Shown here: positions 1,266-40,845 of the stretch, in pieces | Layout of the letters: the number at the start of each line of letters is the position of its first letter | Numbering within the stretch: position 1 is the stretch's first letter | From: Candidatus Terrybacteria bacterium RIFCSPHIGHO2_01_FULL_48_17 | GTDB lineage: Bacteria > Patescibacteriota > Minisyncoccia > Terrybacterales > 2-01-FULL-58-14 | DNA: 64,000 bases | NCBI GenBank assembly: GCA_001822835.1 | Contig: MHSS01000013.1 | Coordinates: forward strand, 10,321-74,320 | Direction of reading: 5' to 3' | The notes under the pieces: generated by a model | Database searches by the model: none | Told to the model about the DNA's origin: nothing | Seen by the model: only the letters and a program-made list of their open reading frames with translations | Program-made: the position numbers and the translations under genes

Positions 1266-1772
1266 ATGCCCAAAGTTACGACAAAAAAATCAGCGCCCAA
1301 AAAAGCTTCTCGCCGTCCTGTTGCGAAACAAAAGGCGCAACCCCAAAGACCGATAAAACCAAGCGAGCCACGTTTTATTCCATCAAAATATGTTGAAGGC
1401 GTGGGTCGTCGTAAAACGGCTATCGCACGCGTGAGGATTTTTACGAAAGGCGATAAAGAAATAGTGGTTAATGGACGGGCGCTTGAAAACTACTTTCCGG
1501 TGGCTGGCCATCGTGATGAGGTACGTGCACCATTGCAGCGTCTTAATATTGAAGATAAGTTTCGTATTTCCGTACAAGCGCATGGCAGCGGCGTGCATGC
1601 CCAGGCTCAGGCCATACGCCATGGATTGGCACGGGCCCTTGTGCGGTTTAATCCGGACTTTCGCAAACGCCTGAAACGGGCAGGATATCTTACGCGCGAT
1701 GCCCGTATGGTTGAACGCAAAAAAGCGGGGCTGAAAAAGGCAAGAAGGGCGCCCCAATGGCAAAAACGATAG
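1266..1772 (+). CDS. rpsI: 30S ribosomal protein S9 with a Lys/Ala/Pro-rich N-terminal extension
   Basis: C-terminal S9 signature ...GSGVHAQAQAIRHGLARAL...RKRLKRAGYLTRDARMVERKK.GLKKARRAPQW.KR. Confidence 0.9.
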   Translation: MPKVTTKKSAPKKASRRPVAKQKAQPQRPIKPSEPRFIPSKYVEGVGRRKTAIARVRIFTKGDKEIVVNGRALENYFPVAGHRDEVRAPLQRLNIEDKFRISVQAHGSGVHAQAQAIRHGLARALVRFNPDFRKRLKRAGYLTRDARMVERKKAGLKKARRAPQWQKR

Positions 1773-1775
1773 TGA

Positions 1776-2010
1776 AGCTCGTGGAGGACTAATTTGCGAA
1801 ACGCAAGCCGCCCCAGCGAGACGGCTTGCTCTGTCCTCGGTTCGCTCCCGAGCACATAATGCGTTATGTGCTCGGACCATGCCCGCTCGCCTGCGGAGGT
1901 TCGCAAATCAGCCTCCACTCGCTTACCGGAGGAACGAAAATAAGGCAAGCGCTTTCGCTAAATCGCTCAGCACAAACACGCTGCGCCAGAAAGAAAAAGA
2001 AAAGATAAAA
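1776..2010 (+). ncRNA. Candidate structured RNA or 3'UTR element: about 230 nt with no ORF and four or more perfect hairpins
   Basis: Perfect stems: GCAAGCCG..CGGCTTGC; CGAGCACATAA-tgcg-TTATGTGCTCG (11 bp); GGAGG..CCTCC; CGCTTgCC..GGcAAGCG. Lies between the rpsI stop and a bidirectional terminator. Confidence 0.2.
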
Positions 2011-2014
2011 GAAT

Positions 2015-2036
2015 CCCGCACTCGGCGGGGTTTTGT
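2015..2036. terminator. Bidirectional Rho-independent terminator between convergent genes
   Basis: cccgcACTCGgcggg stem followed by gttttgtg on the + strand. A T-rich run (ttcttttatcttttctttttc) sits on the opposite strand. Confidence 0.5.
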
Positions 2037-2120: not shown

Positions 2121-3500
2121 TCACAATCCAATCGCGCCTCCGATATCAATCGTTGGCCTTGTGGGAATTCGAAATCTTACCAGCCGGCCATCAGGAAACG
2201 CTACGAATAGGGATTGGATACGCAAGTCAACATCAAGAGCACCGATCGTTTCATTAAGAATCGTGGCACTATTTCTGCCACCTCGTTCATCCAACTCAAA
2301 TATACGAATATCTTGTGATGTGCTCACGATCACGTGTTCTTCGCCCGGAGCAAACGACGCATCAAGCAAGTCTCGTGAAGCACGCAATATTAGCGTTTCA
2401 TCTCCTTTTTTTCTTTGGGGTTGTTCGGGCCGTTCTTTGAGAAAATGTACCCGCACTTCATTTGGGGTGCGAAACAATATTTTTTCTCCACTGGGAGAAA
2501 ATTCAAATCCTAACACGCGTTCATGCAACTGAAGGGCTTGGGTTTGATCAGTATCCAGAAACCAGAGTGGGCCATTCTGGGCATATATTGTTATTTTGCC
2601 CTCATGCGTGATAATTTTTATCGGCGCATCTGGAGTTTTTATTGCCGAATTGGTAAGTTGCGTTTTTTCTTCCGGATTTTCCGAATTTATTCTCCAAAGA
2701 TACCCTTCTGTATCGAGGGCGATAATATGGCTAGCGTCCCATCCGAAGGCAATGACATTACGCATAAGCGTTTTTTGCGGGGCTGGGTTTAAAAGTCCCA
2801 GTACGACAAGATTTTGGCCTGAGCGCGCCGCAAGCATCTTCCCGTCGCCTCGAACGAGTGCATCAGAAAGACCGGCAGGAAGGGGGCTGATATGTGGATT
2901 TTGTTTATCCTCAAGATCGACCAATACAGTCGTTCCGTTTTCGAGTACCGTAGTTGCTTTTGGGCTTTCGTTTGCCCATACTGCCGTAACTGCCGATATG
3001 TCTTGTGTTGAAAAAAGAACAGTAAGATCCTTATCGTCGACTACCTTGAGGCCATCGTTTGAAATAAGCAAAAGAAAGCTCTGTTTTGGTGATGAAATGA
3101 TTGTTGAGGGAAAAGCCGCAGAGCGTGTCGCAATAACATCAAGCTTTTGTGGCCATAGTTGTGCAAAAGGGAACAGGAGCGTTTTTCCCGGCTCAATGGC
3201 AGCAATCTTTTTCCATGGTGTGAAACCAGCCCGCATCGCTTCGATATTTAAAGAGCCGGGGATAAGGTTTGCAAAATATGCTTTCGAAGAAATTGCTGAA
3301 GTAGTTTTGCTCCGTTTGGTTTCAACAGAAACAGTCGTTCCGTATGGAAATGGGAACACAGCAAGCGCGCCGGTTTTCACGATGGCGCCTTCTCTTAAAG
3401 ATAGCCGCCATCCCATAGCATAAAGTGCGGTAAGCGGTATTGCGATTAACGCTATAAGGATCGCCGCCCTTACTATAATTTGCCGTGTTCCTCGGCTCAT
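2121..3500 (-). CDS. Hypothetical membrane-anchored protein (N-terminal TM helix, large extracytoplasmic domain)
   Basis: 459-aa ORF with a hydrophobic N-terminus (IIVRAAILIALIAIPLTALYAMGW). I recognise no catalytic motif. Confidence 0.55.
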   Translation of the reverse strand: MSRGTRQIIVRAAILIALIAIPLTALYAMGWRLSLREGAIVKTGALAVFPFPYGTTVSVETKRSKTTSAISSKAYFANLIPGSLNIEAMRAGFTPWKKIAAIEPGKTLLFPFAQLWPQKLDVIATRSAAFPSTIISSPKQSFLLLISNDGLKVVDDKDLTVLFSTQDISAVTAVWANESPKATTVLENGTTVLVDLEDKQNPHISPLPAGLSDALVRGDGKMLAARSGQNLVVLGLLNPAPQKTLMRNVIAFGWDASHIIALDTEGYLWRINSENPEEKTQLTNSAIKTPDAPIKIITHEGKITIYAQNGPLWFLDTDQTQALQLHERVLGFEFSPSGEKILFRTPNEVRVHFLKERPEQPQRKKGDETLILRASRDLLDASFAPGEEHVIVSTSQDIRIFELDERGGRNSATILNETIGALDVDLRIQSLFVAFPDGRLVRFRIPTRPTIDIGGAIGL

Positions 3501-17142: not shown

Positions 17143-17176
17143 CCTCGGCGCGAGCCGAGGAATTTCTTTTTTTCTT
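17143..17176 (+). terminator. Rho-independent terminator
   Basis: CCTCGGCgcgaGCCGAGG followed by aatttctttttttcttcc. Confidence 0.55.
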
Positions 17177-17424
17177 CCCTCTTTTCTTTCTGCGAGCGAG
17201 ACCGTTTTCTTTCTAAAATGCGATCCCAATCTACGAATAGCATCCGAATGCTCCGAATATTGACGTTGCGCAAGTGGCGTGGCTGCGAGCGGGTTACGAG
17301 CGCGGAACGGGCATGGTTCGAGCGGAGTCGCGTTTGACGCGACGGAGCGAGAGAGTGAAGCGCGAGTCCCCGAGCTCGCCACGCTGGGGCGAGCAAGGAA
17401 AGCGAGCAACCATGCCATCGCGCC

Positions 17425-19215
17425 TTACACCTCTATAATAACGGGTAAAACCATGGGTCTTCGCTGCGTCTTCTCAAACAAAAACCTGCCCAGCTCCTCT
17501 TTGATGCTCTCTTTGACATGCATCCAATTTGGCTGTTGCTGTGCTCGTTGTGCATGCCCCTCAATATTATTACGTACCAAATCGCGCGCCTCCCGTAGCA
17601 ATTGTTGTGATTCTTTCAGATATACAAATCCCCGCGAAATAACATCCGGGCTTCCTTTTACTTTTCCTGCATGCGTATCAACGACCGCAATAATCACAAA
17701 CATGCCGTCCCCGGCCATTTGTTGCCGATCCCGAAGCACTATTTCTTTCACATCCCCAACGCCAAGGCCGTCTACAAAAACATACTGTGCCGGCGCCTTT
17801 TCCCTCCGTACCTGTATTTTGTCATGGCCCACCTCAATAATTGCGCCATTGAATCCCACAGCTACGTTCTCTCGGGGTATGCCCATGGTTTCTGCAAGCT
17901 CGGCGTGCGTTTTCAGCATTGAATACTGGCCGTGGATGGGTACCAAAAACCTTGGTTTCACCAGCGCAAGCATGAGTTTCAGATCTTCGGCATACGCATG
18001 GCCTGAAGCGTGAATATCCATCATGCGATAGTGGAATACATGGGCTCCTTGCCGCATAACCGCATCTTTTAGATACTGCACTTGCCGTTCGTTTCCCGGA
18101 ACGATTGATGAGGAGAAAATGACCGTATCGTTTGGATGTAGCGTTATAAACCTATGTTCGCGGTTTGCAATGCGCATGAGTACCGCCCGCGCTTCGCCCT
18201 GCGCCCCGGTACAGAAAACCGCAACGCGTTTTGGGTCTATTTTTTCGGCATCCCTAACGTCCACGAGCATTCCTTGAGGAATTTTAAGGTGTCCAAGCGC
18301 GCGTGCTACTTCAACATTTGCTTTCATGCTGTAGCCATCAATAGCAACTTTACGGCCATATTTTTCGGCCAATAAGAATCCTTGTTGTAGCCGCCCGATG
18401 AGCGATGCAAACGTTGCCATGATAACGCGCCCCTCGGCATTTTTAAAAATAGGGTCGAGGTTTTCCATAATGACGGATTCTGAAAGCGAGTAGCCTGGGT
18501 GTTCGGCTCCTGTTGAATCCGACAGCAGGCATAACACACCTCGAGAGCCGATTTCCGCAATTTTTTGCAAGTCCGCCGGCTCATCTCCAACGGGCTTGAA
18601 ATCGAACTTGAAATCGCAGGTATGCACGATGGTGCCGATGGGCGTTTTAATGGCAAGGCCAATGGAATCTGGAATATTATGGTTTACGTGAAAGTGCTCA
18701 ATGATGAATGGGTCCAAACGCATTGGCGTGGGGTCGCCTTTTTTGAGCAGGTGGATTTGGGGTTTTGGTGAGTCGGGGAAATCCTCCTGGCGTTTTAAAA
18801 TCATGCCGCGCGTGAGCGCCGTGGTATAGACCGGCGGGTTGCCTAGATCTCTGAGAAGATAGGGTAGAGCTCCCATGTGGTCGTAGTGGCCGTGGGTGAT
18901 AAAGATGCCGTGGATAGTTTTCTCTTTGCCGCGCAAATACGAGATATTGGGAATGATAAAGTCAATGCCCGGCGTATCTTCTTCCGGAAAACGCAGGCCG
19001 ATATCAATAATAAGGCGGTCATCGCCGTACTCGATAACCATCATGTTGCGGCCGACTTCTTCAAAGCCGCCCAACGGGATAACACGAACGGCTTTTTGGG
19101 TCGGTTTGGGCATTTCCAGACGCTGTTCTTCGGGATAGCGTCTGCGCCTATGCGGCTGCATGTGGCGCGGTTGCCGCGGCGTCCTGCGACGTGCAGATAG
19201 TGGAGATGTCATCAT
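17425..19215 (-). CDS. rnj: Ribonuclease J (metallo-beta-lactamase/beta-CASP RNase) with an Arg-rich N-terminal extension
   Basis: VRVIPLGGFEEVGRNMMVIEYGDDRLIIDIGL...ITHGHYDHMGALPYLL (HxHxDH). About 560-aa core. An alternative start is MPKPTQ at about 19113. Confidence 0.88.
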   Translation of the reverse strand: MMTSPLSARRRTPRQPRHMQPHRRRRYPEEQRLEMPKPTQKAVRVIPLGGFEEVGRNMMVIEYGDDRLIIDIGLRFPEEDTPGIDFIIPNISYLRGKEKTIHGIFITHGHYDHMGALPYLLRDLGNPPVYTTALTRGMILKRQEDFPDSPKPQIHLLKKGDPTPMRLDPFIIEHFHVNHNIPDSIGLAIKTPIGTIVHTCDFKFDFKPVGDEPADLQKIAEIGSRGVLCLLSDSTGAEHPGYSLSESVIMENLDPIFKNAEGRVIMATFASLIGRLQQGFLLAEKYGRKVAIDGYSMKANVEVARALGHLKIPQGMLVDVRDAEKIDPKRVAVFCTGAQGEARAVLMRIANREHRFITLHPNDTVIFSSSIVPGNERQVQYLKDAVMRQGAHVFHYRMMDIHASGHAYAEDLKLMLALVKPRFLVPIHGQYSMLKTHAELAETMGIPRENVAVGFNGAIIEVGHDKIQVRREKAPAQYVFVDGLGVGDVKEIVLRDRQQMAGDGMFVIIAVVDTHAGKVKGSPDVISRGFVYLKESQQLLREARDLVRNNIEGHAQRAQQQPNWMHVKESIKEELGRFLFEKTQRRPMVLPVIIEV

Positions 19216-19560: not shown

Positions 19561-19644
19561 GCCCGGGTGGCGGAATTGGCAGACGCGCTAGCTTCAGGAG
19601 CTAGTGGGAGCAATCTCGTGGGAGTTCGAATCTCCCCCCGGGCA
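19561..19644 (+). tRNA. tRNA-Leu (anticodon CAG), class II with long variable arm
   Basis: GCCCGGG acceptor / CCCGGGC, D-arm GCGGAATTGGCAGACGC, anticodon stem-loop CTAGC-TTCAGGA-GCTAG, T-arm GGAGTTCGAATCTCC. CCA is not encoded. Confidence 0.9.
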
Positions 19645-19774
19645 TATCACTCGTTACCGTCGTGGGTTTTCGCGCCTCCATCTATTTTTTCTTTATTGAT
19701 CCCACTGCCAACCCGATGAAAACCCGCGACGGTAACTCGCTTACGGGAGGAAATATATGCCCATAGGTATTAAA

Positions 19775-31540: not shown

Positions 31541-33340
31541 GAAAGAAGGAATCCAAAAGAGAGGCGAAAACGGCTGTGGCCTGCGAAGGGATGAGGGCTA
31601 CGGTTCCCACGGTCTATGTTTTGCGGAGCCTGCGATGCGCGGAAGGACGAGCGGGGTGGAATAGCTCGTTTCTGGGGCGCCATCCTATCGCAATCTCCGT
31701 CCCCAAGCCGCTGGGCCAAAGAGGAAGAGCCGCGCCTCTCAAGGGCGATGGGATTGCCTAACACAATCCTTCGCTTCTCTTTTGGGTTTCTTATAGAGCC
31801 CCCTTGACAATGATGGTCGAGTTGTGCTAAGAGGAGTATACGATTTTAAAGATTAAATTGAGGTTCCTTCGGTTCTCTCCCTGCATTTATCATTCATCAT
31901 TAAGAATTATCACAAGACGAATGCAGAGAGAGGGCCGGATGGGCTCTCTTCTGATGAAATCCAGACGGCTGATCACCGTCTGGTCGGGTCCCAACCGTTG
32001 TTGCGCCCAAAAGGGGCATGCCCCGCCATCTTGCGGGGAGGAGCTATCCAAATCGCCCCTCGTCGGGTTTGCCTGGCGAGTATAAGCGAAGAGGAAGAGT
32101 TCTGCGGCAGCGGGGAGGCTGTGCCCGTTTATCGCCCTGTTGGCGATGGCGGGATCCCGCCCCGACGCTCTTGGGGACGCTCAAGAGAAGAAGGGGAAAT
32201 GCCTGATTGATCTGTCAAACAGTGGGGGCAAGCCGGACTTTCTTTCTGTCCCCCCTAAAGCAGCAGGGAGCGCAAGCGCTTGTGCGCAACGCTCGTCACG
32301 GCCCGGCGGTGGTCGAGAAGTTCTCTGCTGCAATTTAAGCACCTTTTCAAAAGAACGGATCCGAGGGAAACGATAACCTCGGAGCCCTCTCCCTGAACCA
32401 GTTTCATTTTCTGAACTCTGTACCCTGATGTCTGTACCCTGTTAACTGATTCAGAGAGAGGGACGCCCGTCTCTGCCGGTCTGGCTGGCACGTGTGGTGC
32501 CGGAAATGCTGGCTCCCGCCCGGCTCGATTGGAGCCGAGGGGCCTCTACGGGCGACCTCGCGCGATGGCGGCTAACCCGAGCCCTTTCCCGGGGCAAGCC
32601 CCGTCCGCGGCGGGGTGTGCAGGTTTCGGGCGATGCCGCAAAAAAGGTAGAATCATCTGAGGAGCGTGGAACCATTAAGGTTCCCGGGAAACTTGTGGGA
32701 AAGCGCTCCTCGGCCGGTCATAGTTCTTTGTTAGGGGATAAGCCCATTCGAGCCGATAAGTTCGGCTCTCCCTCCCTACATTTTTTTTCGAAAGCTTACG
32801 TGAAGAGCAGAAAGCGCCAACTATCTTTTTTTAACGCTTCTCTCTTATCACTTATTACTTTAAAGAATGTAGAGAGGGGGAGGATCTCTTTGCCGCAAGC
32901 TTCGGCGGAGAGGGTAGGGCCCGGGAATTCCTGCCCGAGTGCTACGAAAACGGCGCTCGAAAGCCTCGACCCCGCTTAATGAGGGTCGCTCCAGGGGGCT
33001 GCACAAACGCGGTCACTAAGTGCGGCGGTCAGTTACCGTCGCCGGAGCGGTCCAGCTCTTATTGCCGGAGCATCATAATCTCCGGCACCCCTCTCTGCAT
33101 TTATCATTCTTCATTTGTCATTGATAAATACAGAGAGGGGTTCTCACAACCCCATATTTTTACCCAGGGTCCGCCTGTAAAAAGGTGGCAAATGCCTAAA
33201 GGGCCCTAATGGTGTTTATACGCCCCGGTGTTGGCTCCAAGAGTCGATGCCGGGTCTTTCTTTATATACGAACTATGGGGGTCCGACCCCCATAGTATTT
33301 TTAGAAAAGCCTGCCGAAGAGTTTATCTGGGCTGGCTGAA
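31541..33340. other. 1.8-kb ORF-poor, GC-rich non-coding region with three related hairpins (CTCTCTG/CAGAGAG stems)
   Basis: No ORF over 161 aa on either strand, and none with recognisable motifs. Hairpins at 31866-31925, 32450-32474 and 33085-33137 (19-bp stem). Two hairpin loops begin CATTTATCATTC(A/T)TCATT. Confidence 0.4.
33274..33303 (+). terminator. Rho-independent terminator closing the ORF-poor region
   Basis: CTATGGGGGTCcgaCCCCCATAG tattttta. Confidence 0.55.
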
Positions 33341-33344
33341 GGGC

Positions 33345-33371
33345 TTGACAAGCCCTTTTGCTTTGTATAAA
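33345..33371 (+). promoter_or_regulatory. Sigma-70-type promoter for groES-groEL (TTGACA-15/16-TATAAA)
   Basis: TTGACA at 33345-33350, TATAAAT at 33366-33372, immediately upstream of CIRCE. Confidence 0.5.
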
Positions 33372-33387
33372 TAGATAAGTGGCGGCA

Positions 33388-33414
33388 TTAGCAGTAAACA
33401 CGTCGGACTGCTAA
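33388..33414 (+). promoter_or_regulatory. CIRCE operator (HrcA binding site)
   Basis: TTAGCAGTA-N9-GACTGCTAA is the 9-9-9 CIRCE architecture (consensus TTAGCACTC-N9-GAGTGCTAA), 100 nt upstream of groES. Confidence 0.8.
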
Positions 33415-33515
33415 TGAGAGAAGCCGATACGCGCCGATAGCCACGCTGATTTACGCTTAAGCTTATATCCGCGCAAATCCGCGTTGCAATCCGTGTTAAT
33501 TCATTTCTACAAATT

Positions 33516-40500: not shown

Positions 40501-40607
40501 GGGAGACGAAAGGAGGGTTCGCATAGTGGCCTAGTGCGGTTGCTTGTTCCCGATTTGTCCAAAGAGCCTACAGGCGATTGGTAACAAATCGCAATCCCGT
40601 GGAACGG

Positions 40608-40694
40608 CGGTGGGGTGCCAGAGTGGCCGAATGGGTCTGCTTGGAGAGCAGATATACGGGAAACCGTATCGCGAGTTCGAATCTCGCCCCCACC
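40608..40694 (+). tRNA. tRNA-Ser (anticodon GGA), class II
   Basis: GGTGGGG/CCCCACC acceptor, D-loop GTGGCCGAATGG, anticodon stem-loop TCTGC-TTGGAGA-GCAGA, long variable arm TATACGGGAAACCGTATC, T-arm GCGAGTTCGAATCTCGC, discriminator G. Confidence 0.88.
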
Positions 40695-40845
40695 GCCGTG
40701 CTTCGGGAGAGAGCAACTATAGGGAGAAGATAAGTTCGCCCGCCTTCGCTAAAGCTTCGGCGGGTAAAAATCTCGCCCCCTCCGTATGATCGAGCGCTCT
40801 TGTTGGCAGTACGCTTCGTACGAGTGATCTTAAACAAATCTATCT

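Follow-up and report, generated by a model that had tools for sequence, protein, structure and literature searches.

The sequence considered here is a stretch of 64,000 nucleotides (the window) from Candidatus Terrybacteria bacterium RIFCSPHIGHO2_01_FULL_48_17, an uncultured CPR/Parcubacteria genome from Rifle aquifer groundwater. Near its beginning lies an operon with the gene order rpoA, rplQ, rplM and rpsI on the plus strand, where the window starts inside rpoA. The stop codon TAG of rpsI, at 1770-1772, is immediately followed by an in-frame TGA. Converging on rpsI is a minus-strand gene (2121-3500) for a protein of 459 amino acids, which is membrane-anchored, is without a Pfam domain and has only three homologues in a collection of 5.8 billion proteins. 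Ribosomal protein S9 has a lysine/proline-rich N-terminal extension of about 40 amino acids within its 168 amino acids in total, and the NCBI protein for the same genome (P0001) is 131 amino acids long and annotated from an internal start. The locus is found in identical copies across several Rifle metagenome assemblies. As these same-species contigs are identical across the whole of the element described below, they are uninformative for its conservation. Two of them, from independent metagenomes, break inside a 28-nt palindrome in the element, at window positions 1872 (L084) and 1866 (L087), and two others (L085 and L090) end just past rpsI in poly-C junk; the palindrome appears to disturb assembly.

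A preliminary description, made from the letters of the sequence, had singled out the gap between the rpsI stop codon and a bidirectional terminator as unusually structured, and the folding calculations agree. The 271 nt from 1770 to 2040 fold with -102.6 kcal/mol (z = -3.9), and one in 200 shuffled sequences folds as well. For the core of 154 nt (1773-1926) the energy is -71.6 kcal/mol (z = -4.9), and none of 200 shuffled sequences reaches it. The structured part, here called element W, is about 150 nt long and begins 2 nt after the rpsI stop codon. Its components are listed in Table 1, together with those of a second element, K, to which we return below.

Table 1. Positions in the window of elements W and K, their parts and the genes and signals next to them.
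Feature	Position	Strand	Basis
rpsI (S9, 168 aa; last cistron of rpoA-rplQ-rplM-rpsI)	1266-1772	+	Pfam labels on identical contigs; 99% identity to Terrybacteria S9
Element W, closed multibranch domain in the rpsI 3' UTR	1775-1924	+	Fold z = -4.9; models R1 and R2 match the L219 orthologue
P1, 5' strand, with symmetric UC/UC internal loop within GCUCG	1775-1800	+	Inverted repeats I4, I5
P2, perfect 8-bp hairpin (1803-1810/1822-1829), conserved loop CCCCAGCGAGA	1803-1829	+	Repeat I10
J2/3, pyrimidine-rich junction, conserved UCGCUC at its end	1830-1847	+	Invariant columns T74-C79 of A7
P3, perfect 12+4+12 palindrome of 28 nt (1848-1859/1864-1875)	1848-1875	+	Repeat I2
J3/1, with conserved block ACCAUGCCCGCUC and weak P4 (1883-1886/1893-1896)	1876-1899	+	Invariant columns 115-127 of A7
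P1, 3' strand	1900-1924	+	Inverted-repeat and fold analysis
Weakly structured spacer	1925-1986	+	MFE fold shows small hairpins only; 49% identity to L091
Purine-rich tract CAGAAAGAAAAAGAAAAGAUAAAAGAAU	1987-2014	+	Sequence; analogous tract after K and in relatives
Bidirectional intrinsic terminator, CCCGC ACUCG GCGGG (2015-2029), then UUUUG	2015-2035	both	Fold; 93% identical in L091
Purine tract (17192-17161) and hairpin (17160-17143) downstream of K	17143-17192	-	Sequence
Element K, diverged paralogue, onset 1 nt past the TAA stop of the RNase J gene	17268-17423	-	R2, 22.3 bits
Parts of K: P1 17423-17402/17290-17268; P2 17394-17374, loop CCCAGCGUG; P3 17343-17327	17268-17423	-	Fold
Core of K, GAACCAUGCCCGUUC	17319-17305	-	Sequence coordinates
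RNase J gene (rnj), 596 aa, upstream of K	17425-19215	-	Pfam RNase_J_b_CASP 2.4e-42, RNase_J_C 1.3e-28

Element W is closed by a long-range helix, P1, of 21-26 bp (21 pairs over 26 nt), which encloses P2 and P3 and which had been overlooked in the preliminary description. Where four consecutive perfect hairpins of 8-11 bp had been reported, there are two perfect local hairpins, of 8 bp and 12 bp, plus the hairpin of the terminator. The palindrome reported there is real and perfect, but its length is 28 nt and not 26 nt, and the sequence quoted for it had 24 nt. Nor do hairpins fill the whole gap, since 1925-2014 is weakly structured and ends in the purine-rich tract; the bidirectional terminator said to lie downstream is present. 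On the opposite strand, the purine-rich tract provides the terminator of the convergent gene with its U/C tract. P1 itself was considered as an intrinsic terminator and rejected, as it is followed by ACCGGAGG with no U tract, and the terminator stands apart from it.

A density of stems atypical for a passive spacer had also been put forward as an argument in itself. The structure is real, but an inverted-repeat scan and a GC-corrected MFE scan of the window show other spacers of the same genome to be equally hairpin-rich, and stem density alone is therefore not decisive. (The MFE scan was a regression on GC content, and its 50-nt frames split element W.) Among the most stable folds of the window is a region of about 2 kb without a convincing open reading frame (31541-33515), between a gene for 327 amino acids and groES, with a GC content up to 0.63. 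Found in it are a closing inverted repeat of 23 nt (31546-31568/31770-31792) and three long, related hairpins that share CTCTC(C)CTGCATTTATCATTC (at about 31877-31935, 32770-32885 and 33087-33141), and Rfam gave only noise on it. The tRNA-Ser gene (40609-40697) lies inside a 21-bp stem formed by the acceptor stem and its flanks (40595-40708), and the tRNA-Leu gene (19561-19644) is directly followed by a hairpin of 19 bp with 95% complementarity (19653-19736); these stems may point to stem-directed processing of the precursors.

The preliminary description had proposed a 6S-like or SRP-like small RNA, and a comparison with Rfam by cmscan. The comparison gave no family match. With Rfam 15, the whole window contains two tRNAs at the gathering threshold and no rRNA; on either strand of 1600-2250 there is only 14-bit noise at E <= 10, the region of K gives no match at the same limit, and ARAGORN detects neither tmRNA nor tRNA at element W. 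From this follows that W is not a recognisable 6S, SRP, RNase P, tmRNA or 5S RNA, nor a recognisable ribozyme, riboswitch or ribosomal leader, and its multibranch shape does not suit 6S or SRP RNA. An autoregulatory leader of a ribosomal protein was rejected also on position, because such a leader precedes the cistron that it regulates and overlaps its ribosome-binding site, whereas W comes after the last cistron and is followed by a convergent gene. A search of the literature on structured RNAs in CPR bacteria found nothing relevant.

Roles for short parts of the element were rejected as well. A XerC/D dif site has two 11-bp arms around a 6-bp centre, and the spacing in E. coli dif is 6 bp; in the 28-nt palindrome CATAA and TTATG are 4 bp apart, and the orthologous hairpin of the relative L219, described next, is neither palindromic nor dif-like. 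An operator is disfavoured by unsuitable spacing and by the lack of conservation of the palindrome in L219. CGCAGAA and GTCGARGG, considered as genome-wide 3'-UTR signals, are not enriched.

In the protein collection the clade has only two other species-level relatives, with RpsI proteins that are 73% (P0002) and 65% (P0003) identical to that of the window; among the genome contigs searched with RpsI there was no close relative, the best match having 48% identity. Consider the relative with 65% identity, whose locus is L219. The region right after its rpsI gene takes the same architecture (z = -5.4), and a covariance model made from the window sequence alone (R1) matches it over its full length and on the same strand, with 42 bits and E = 5e-8. 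The preliminary description had proposed to look for conservation of the hairpins in related genomes, and in this one the structure is kept. MAFFT alignments lost the register of the stems, and alignments guided by the models and padded with N were used instead: A6 with W and L219, and A7 with W, L219 and K, where the loop insertions of K were removed and N served as gap filler. In A6 all 39 pairs are kept and 20 of them have changed on both sides, compared with 0-3 in slid controls with the partners shifted by 1-3 columns. Pair counts from A6 and A7 are inflated, since both alignments were adjusted to the structure, by model as well as manually. The unpaired columns are 61% conserved, as against 46% for the paired ones, and three unpaired blocks are conserved, namely CCCCAGCGAG in the loop of P2, UCGCUC in J2/3 and ACC(A/G)UGCCCGCUCG in J3/1. 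The gene after rpsI in L219 is co-directional, which means that the element travels with rpsI.

The relative closest by RpsI (73%, locus L091) is fully syntenic with the window and keeps P1 at the same spot, in a form that is homologous to P1 of L219 with compensatory changes. Its interior is rebuilt: there is an extra helix of about 25 bp (z = -6.3), while P3 and the ACCAUGCCCG block are missing. The identity between window and L091 is 44% over the element and 68% in rpsI, and the score of a further model, R3, for L091 is only 9.3 bits. The interior of the element is thus not strictly required. None of R1, R2 (a model from W and L219, built without K) and R3 has a significant match to L091, L096 or L220-L225. 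In distant Terrybacteria (L096, L220, L221 and L224) there are loosely similar hairpins or none, with partial resemblance in L096 and L220 and a simple hairpin plus terminator after rpsI in L224. In L097 (2251-2940) and L223 (2237-2935) the structured spacer is replaced by a gene for a PD-(D/E)XK or Cas4-like nuclease directly after rpsI. L220 has a 24-bp closing inverted repeat (3058-3160) in which two CAGCGCC partners compete for one GGCGCUG, and at about 3185-3215 a string CUGAUGAG...GAAA like a hammerhead core, probably by chance.

The comparison with L091 brings out another stretch of the locus. The part of the locus with the highest conservation, from 2010 to 2120, comprises the terminator (93% identity) and the 80 nt that follow it up to the stop codon of the 459-aa gene (90%), with 68% in rpsI and 58% in the 459-aa gene. 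This conserved stretch is modular, with TTCTGCG repeats and short hairpins; L091 carries insertions of 12 and 43 nt, and similar modules follow the stop codon of the orthologue of the 459-aa gene in L218. For 2040-2120 a coding function was rejected because the frame, read by eye, differs between window and L091, and a structured RNA because z is -0.4. Rfam has no match here.

By BLAST, W is single-copy in the 64 kb. With the covariance models, a second, highly diverged occurrence of the element is found in the window itself, behind the RNase J gene. Although built without K, model R2 matches it at 17273-17419 on the minus strand with 22.3 bits (E = 0.004 filtered and 0.0004 unfiltered). The next-best score in the window is 10.8 bits. 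As decoys served 0.89 Mb of viral contigs with both conserved blocks at the right spacing, collected in an earlier scan that gave chance matches only; their maximum is 13.4 bits, and the best score outside the family in 0.57 Mb of window and rpsI loci, mostly from other phyla, is 15.8 bits. In K, P1 has 19 pairs, two of which are G-U on the sense strand, CUCUCGCUCC stands in J2/3 and P3 has 6 bp. When the three sequences W, L219 and K are compared in A7, double-sided changes affect 27 of 43 pairs, compared with 1-5 in the slid controls, and 92% of the cells are paired, with the inflation already mentioned for such counts. Changes on both sides are found in 15 of 24 pairs in P1 and in 7 of 9 in P2, the loop of which is invariant. 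The length of P3 varies, from the 12 bp of W to 7 bp with a 21-nt loop in L219 and the 6 bp of K, and 5 of its 7 shared pairs have changed on both sides; P4 shows no covariation on A7.

The two copies in the window are also alike in motif content and layout. Only two sites in the 64 kb reach a density of at least five CTCG per 150 nt, namely W on the plus strand and K on the minus strand, and GCTCG is 19-fold enriched at both. In each case the order is stop codon, 1-2 nt, element, spacer, purine tract and hairpin. Downstream of K, the hairpin lacks a U tract in the sense direction; on the plus strand, purine tract and hairpin make up the terminator of a convergent 148-aa gene. The confident members of the family are thus three only (W, L219 and K), plus the remodelled L091; a metagenome scan with the P1 arm pattern GTGGAGG-N3-4-ATTTGCGAA gave 120 chance matches, none of them related.

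These comparisons bear on the suggestion that W might not be a passive spacer, which they uphold: the structure recurs with compensatory changes and conserved loops in a relative and in the copy after the RNase J gene. They bear equally on whether the recurrence is one of DNA rather than of RNA. A palindromic repeat without specific RNA function (REP-, MITE- or Correia-like, or an inverted duplication by template switching), persisting in the spacers at gene ends, would have stems that are nearly all Watson-Crick, so that both strands fold, as they do here; P1 is like a 26-bp terminal inverted repeat, the two copies in 64 kb are both at convergent gene ends, which are typical REP sites, the interior of L091 looks as if remodelled by inverted duplication, and the genome is rich in long inverted repeats. 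A repeat of this kind is nevertheless quite unlikely. At the level of BLAST, the similarity between W and K amounts to one 16-nt match at most. Position and orientation after rpsI are the same in L091 and in L219 at 65% RpsI identity, the arms diverge yet stay complementary, and the loops are conserved. Furthermore, the motif content is strand-asymmetric, and no direct repeat is visible on the flanks of 1775-1924.

Conservation at the nucleotide level could also reflect a protein. A small basic protein might start at a conserved AUG or GUG, in the window at 1879-2040 with 53 amino acids (MPARLRRF...), and the first 11 or so codons of W, L219 and L096 do resemble one another: at one position there are three different Arg codons, and a 3-nt indel occurs. 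Against this, two 1-nt indels explain the nucleotide similarity equally well, the open reading frames have 53, 39 and 6 codons in W, L219 and K with unrelated C-termini and with similarity limited to some 4-11 codons at the N-terminus, that of the window crosses the terminator hairpin, and a Pfam match is absent. Such a protein is hardly credible.

If the element acts as RNA, then one has to ask from which strand it is read. Its orientation is that of the upstream gene at the rpsI, rnj and L219 loci, and G-U pairs on the sense strand are present in K, L091 and L224. In W and L219 the pairing is nearly pure Watson-Crick, with a sense-strand G-U pair in 1 of 84 cells. The operon terminator stands downstream of element W, and no promoter-like site was found on either strand of 1500-2400. 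On these sequence features we lean towards the sense strand of the upstream gene for the functional RNA. The opposite strand (minus at rpsI) would yield an antisense RNA or one made by read-through of the convergent gene. The consensus fold of W and L219 is indeed more stable as reverse complement (-76.9 versus -63.0 kcal/mol), with eight G-U cells instead of one; C-A oppositions in the P2 loop and in P4 become G-U pairs there, and one P4 substitution between W and L219 is pairing-neutral on that strand only. The antisense strand is G-richer, however, and folds better by composition alone, the z values being similar (-3.9 and -4.2). The terminator of the convergent gene precedes the element on the minus strand, and L219 has no convergent gene. 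At rpsI and at rnj alike, the CUCG and GCUCG enrichment and the orientation of the copies agree with the coding direction of the gene upstream, and the G-U pairs of K are on the sense strand. An opposite-strand RNA is therefore improbable.

Transcribed in the sense direction, the region could also act in termination. In a Rho-loading (rut-like) or other termination region, C-rich and G-poor single strands with repeated YC motifs (CUCG), lying open just past the stop codon, would recruit a termination factor. The GC skew over the element is negative, the junctions are pyrimidine-rich, UC-containing motifs are enriched and the hairpin downstream of K lacks a sense-strand U tract, all of which would fit. 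The element is mostly tightly paired, however, which is unfavourable for Rho, and an intrinsic terminator is already present at the rpsI locus; we regard such a region as decidedly improbable.

Alternatively, the domain could leave the mRNA. A stable small RNA, excised from the 3' UTR at P1 or made from its own promoter, could act in trans or as part of a particle with protein. Precursors of rRNA and tRNA are cut at long flanking stems, and the extended 21-bp stem around tRNA-Ser suggests stem-directed processing in the same genome. Such an RNA would agree with the compactness of the closed 150-nt domain, with its conserved loops and with the presence of two paralogous copies. On the other hand, there is neither a promoter-like site nor a terminator belonging to P1, the interior is rebuilt in L091 and a Rfam relative is absent; the fixed distance of 1-5 nt from the stop codon at two unrelated genes argues for a role in cis. 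We consider a free small RNA unlikely.

Element W is, then, real, conserved, narrowly distributed and in no known RNA family. The stems drift while compensating, the loops are conserved, the position next to the stop codon is fixed and there are two paralogues, both behind genes for translation or RNA decay. Set against the alternatives of a passive spacer, of a mobile repeat of recent date and of a protein gene, a cis-acting RNA in the 3' UTR is the better fit. That 1775-1924 is a member of a new, lineage-restricted family of such elements is a proposal in which we have even confidence. The plan of the family consists of P1 starting 1-5 nt past the stop codon, a hairpin whose CCCCAGCG(A/U)G loop is conserved, a variable hairpin, and junctions of pyrimidine-rich single strands with repeated GCUCG and the block ACCAUGCCCG(C/U)UC. 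Of the functions raised in the preliminary description, a processing site or a regulatory element acting from the 3' side is consistent with the recurrence, whereas autoregulation specific for S9 or L13 is less likely, because the second copy stands behind rnj.

To see how a cis-acting 3'-UTR element could work, assume that in each transcript the element forms the first part of the 3' UTR of the upstream gene, rpsI or the RNase J gene. After a cut in the purine-rich spacer downstream, the domain closed by P1 would be a structured 3' end that 3'-exonucleases could not pass. Alternatively or in addition, the P1 duplex, with its approximately two turns, would be a putative processing site for a double-strand-specific enzyme of RNase III type. 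P1 has about the length of near-continuous double-stranded RNA in RNase III substrates (some 20 bp or more), with 21 pairs in W, 25 in L219 and 19 in K. The conserved unpaired GCUCG-rich motifs are candidate binding sites for a protein factor. Since P1 abuts the stop codon, a terminating ribosome would have to melt its outer half, and from this follows that folding would be coupled to translation of the upstream gene. The element is in this way probably a regulatory or stabilising tail of the rpsI and rnj mRNAs, possibly a stability or processing module to which a factor binds.

A more far-reaching version, which we think unlikely, is that the element belongs to a small post-transcriptional regulon of CPR bacteria, in which the shared RNA next to the stop codon senses translation termination, recruits a nuclease or binding protein through its GCUCG-rich loops and thereby co-regulates ribosomal-protein and RNase J mRNAs, possibly under feedback control by RNase J or RNase III themselves. 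If true, it would add to bacteria a type of 3'-UTR cis-regulator that has not been described before. Structured cis elements are rare in bacterial 3' UTRs, and next to nothing is known of regulation at the RNA level in the CPR/Patescibacteria, which are uncultured and have reduced genomes. An element that adjoins the stop codon and is common to a ribosomal-protein operon and the gene of a major ribonuclease would give a testable entry to the control of mRNA stability in them. If the element is merely a stabilising cluster of hairpins, it is an ordinary feature with a narrow distribution.

It remains to relate the element to systems already described. Like the autoregulatory leaders of ribosomal proteins, W is structured and linked to a ribosomal-protein operon; unlike them, it is 3' of the last cistron and has a copy behind rnj. 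The processing stems of RNase III, known from rRNA and tRNA precursors and from the leader hairpins of rpsO-pnp and rnc, are found in 5' leaders or on the flanks of stable RNAs. P1 resembles them in its length of about two turns, its small internal loops and its proximity to genes of translation and RNA decay, cleavage being putative, but W comes directly after a stop codon, and its conserved internal hairpins and loops have no counterpart there. REP/BIME and Correia repeats occur in 3' UTRs, often between convergent genes, in many nearly identical copies per genome, and their stable stem-loops can shield the mRNA in front of them against 3' exonucleases or serve as cleavage sites for RNase III. 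The closing helix of W is like their terminal inverted repeats of about 26 bp, whereas W and K have diverged strongly, the element occupies orthologous positions in different species, and the stems covary around conserved loops.

The closest described analogue of W is the L17 downstream element (RF01708). This candidate RNA structure comes after the last gene of the rpoA-rplQ ribosomal-protein operon, in what is potentially a 3' UTR, and in many cases no gene follows directly; a cis role in the 3' UTR was proposed for it and termed 'highly unusual in bacteria' (Weinberg et al. 2010, PMC2864571). Both are found at the 3' end of the alpha ribosomal-protein operon, although W does not follow rplQ itself. 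The L17 downstream element belongs to Lactobacillales and Listeria, whereas W belongs to Terrybacteria of the CPR, and the RF01708 covariance model has no match to it at E <= 10. In comparison, the closing helix of W is much longer and its G-U pairs are few; the operon of W continues through rplM and rpsI, and the copy behind the RNase J gene means that it is not tied to a single ribosomal protein.
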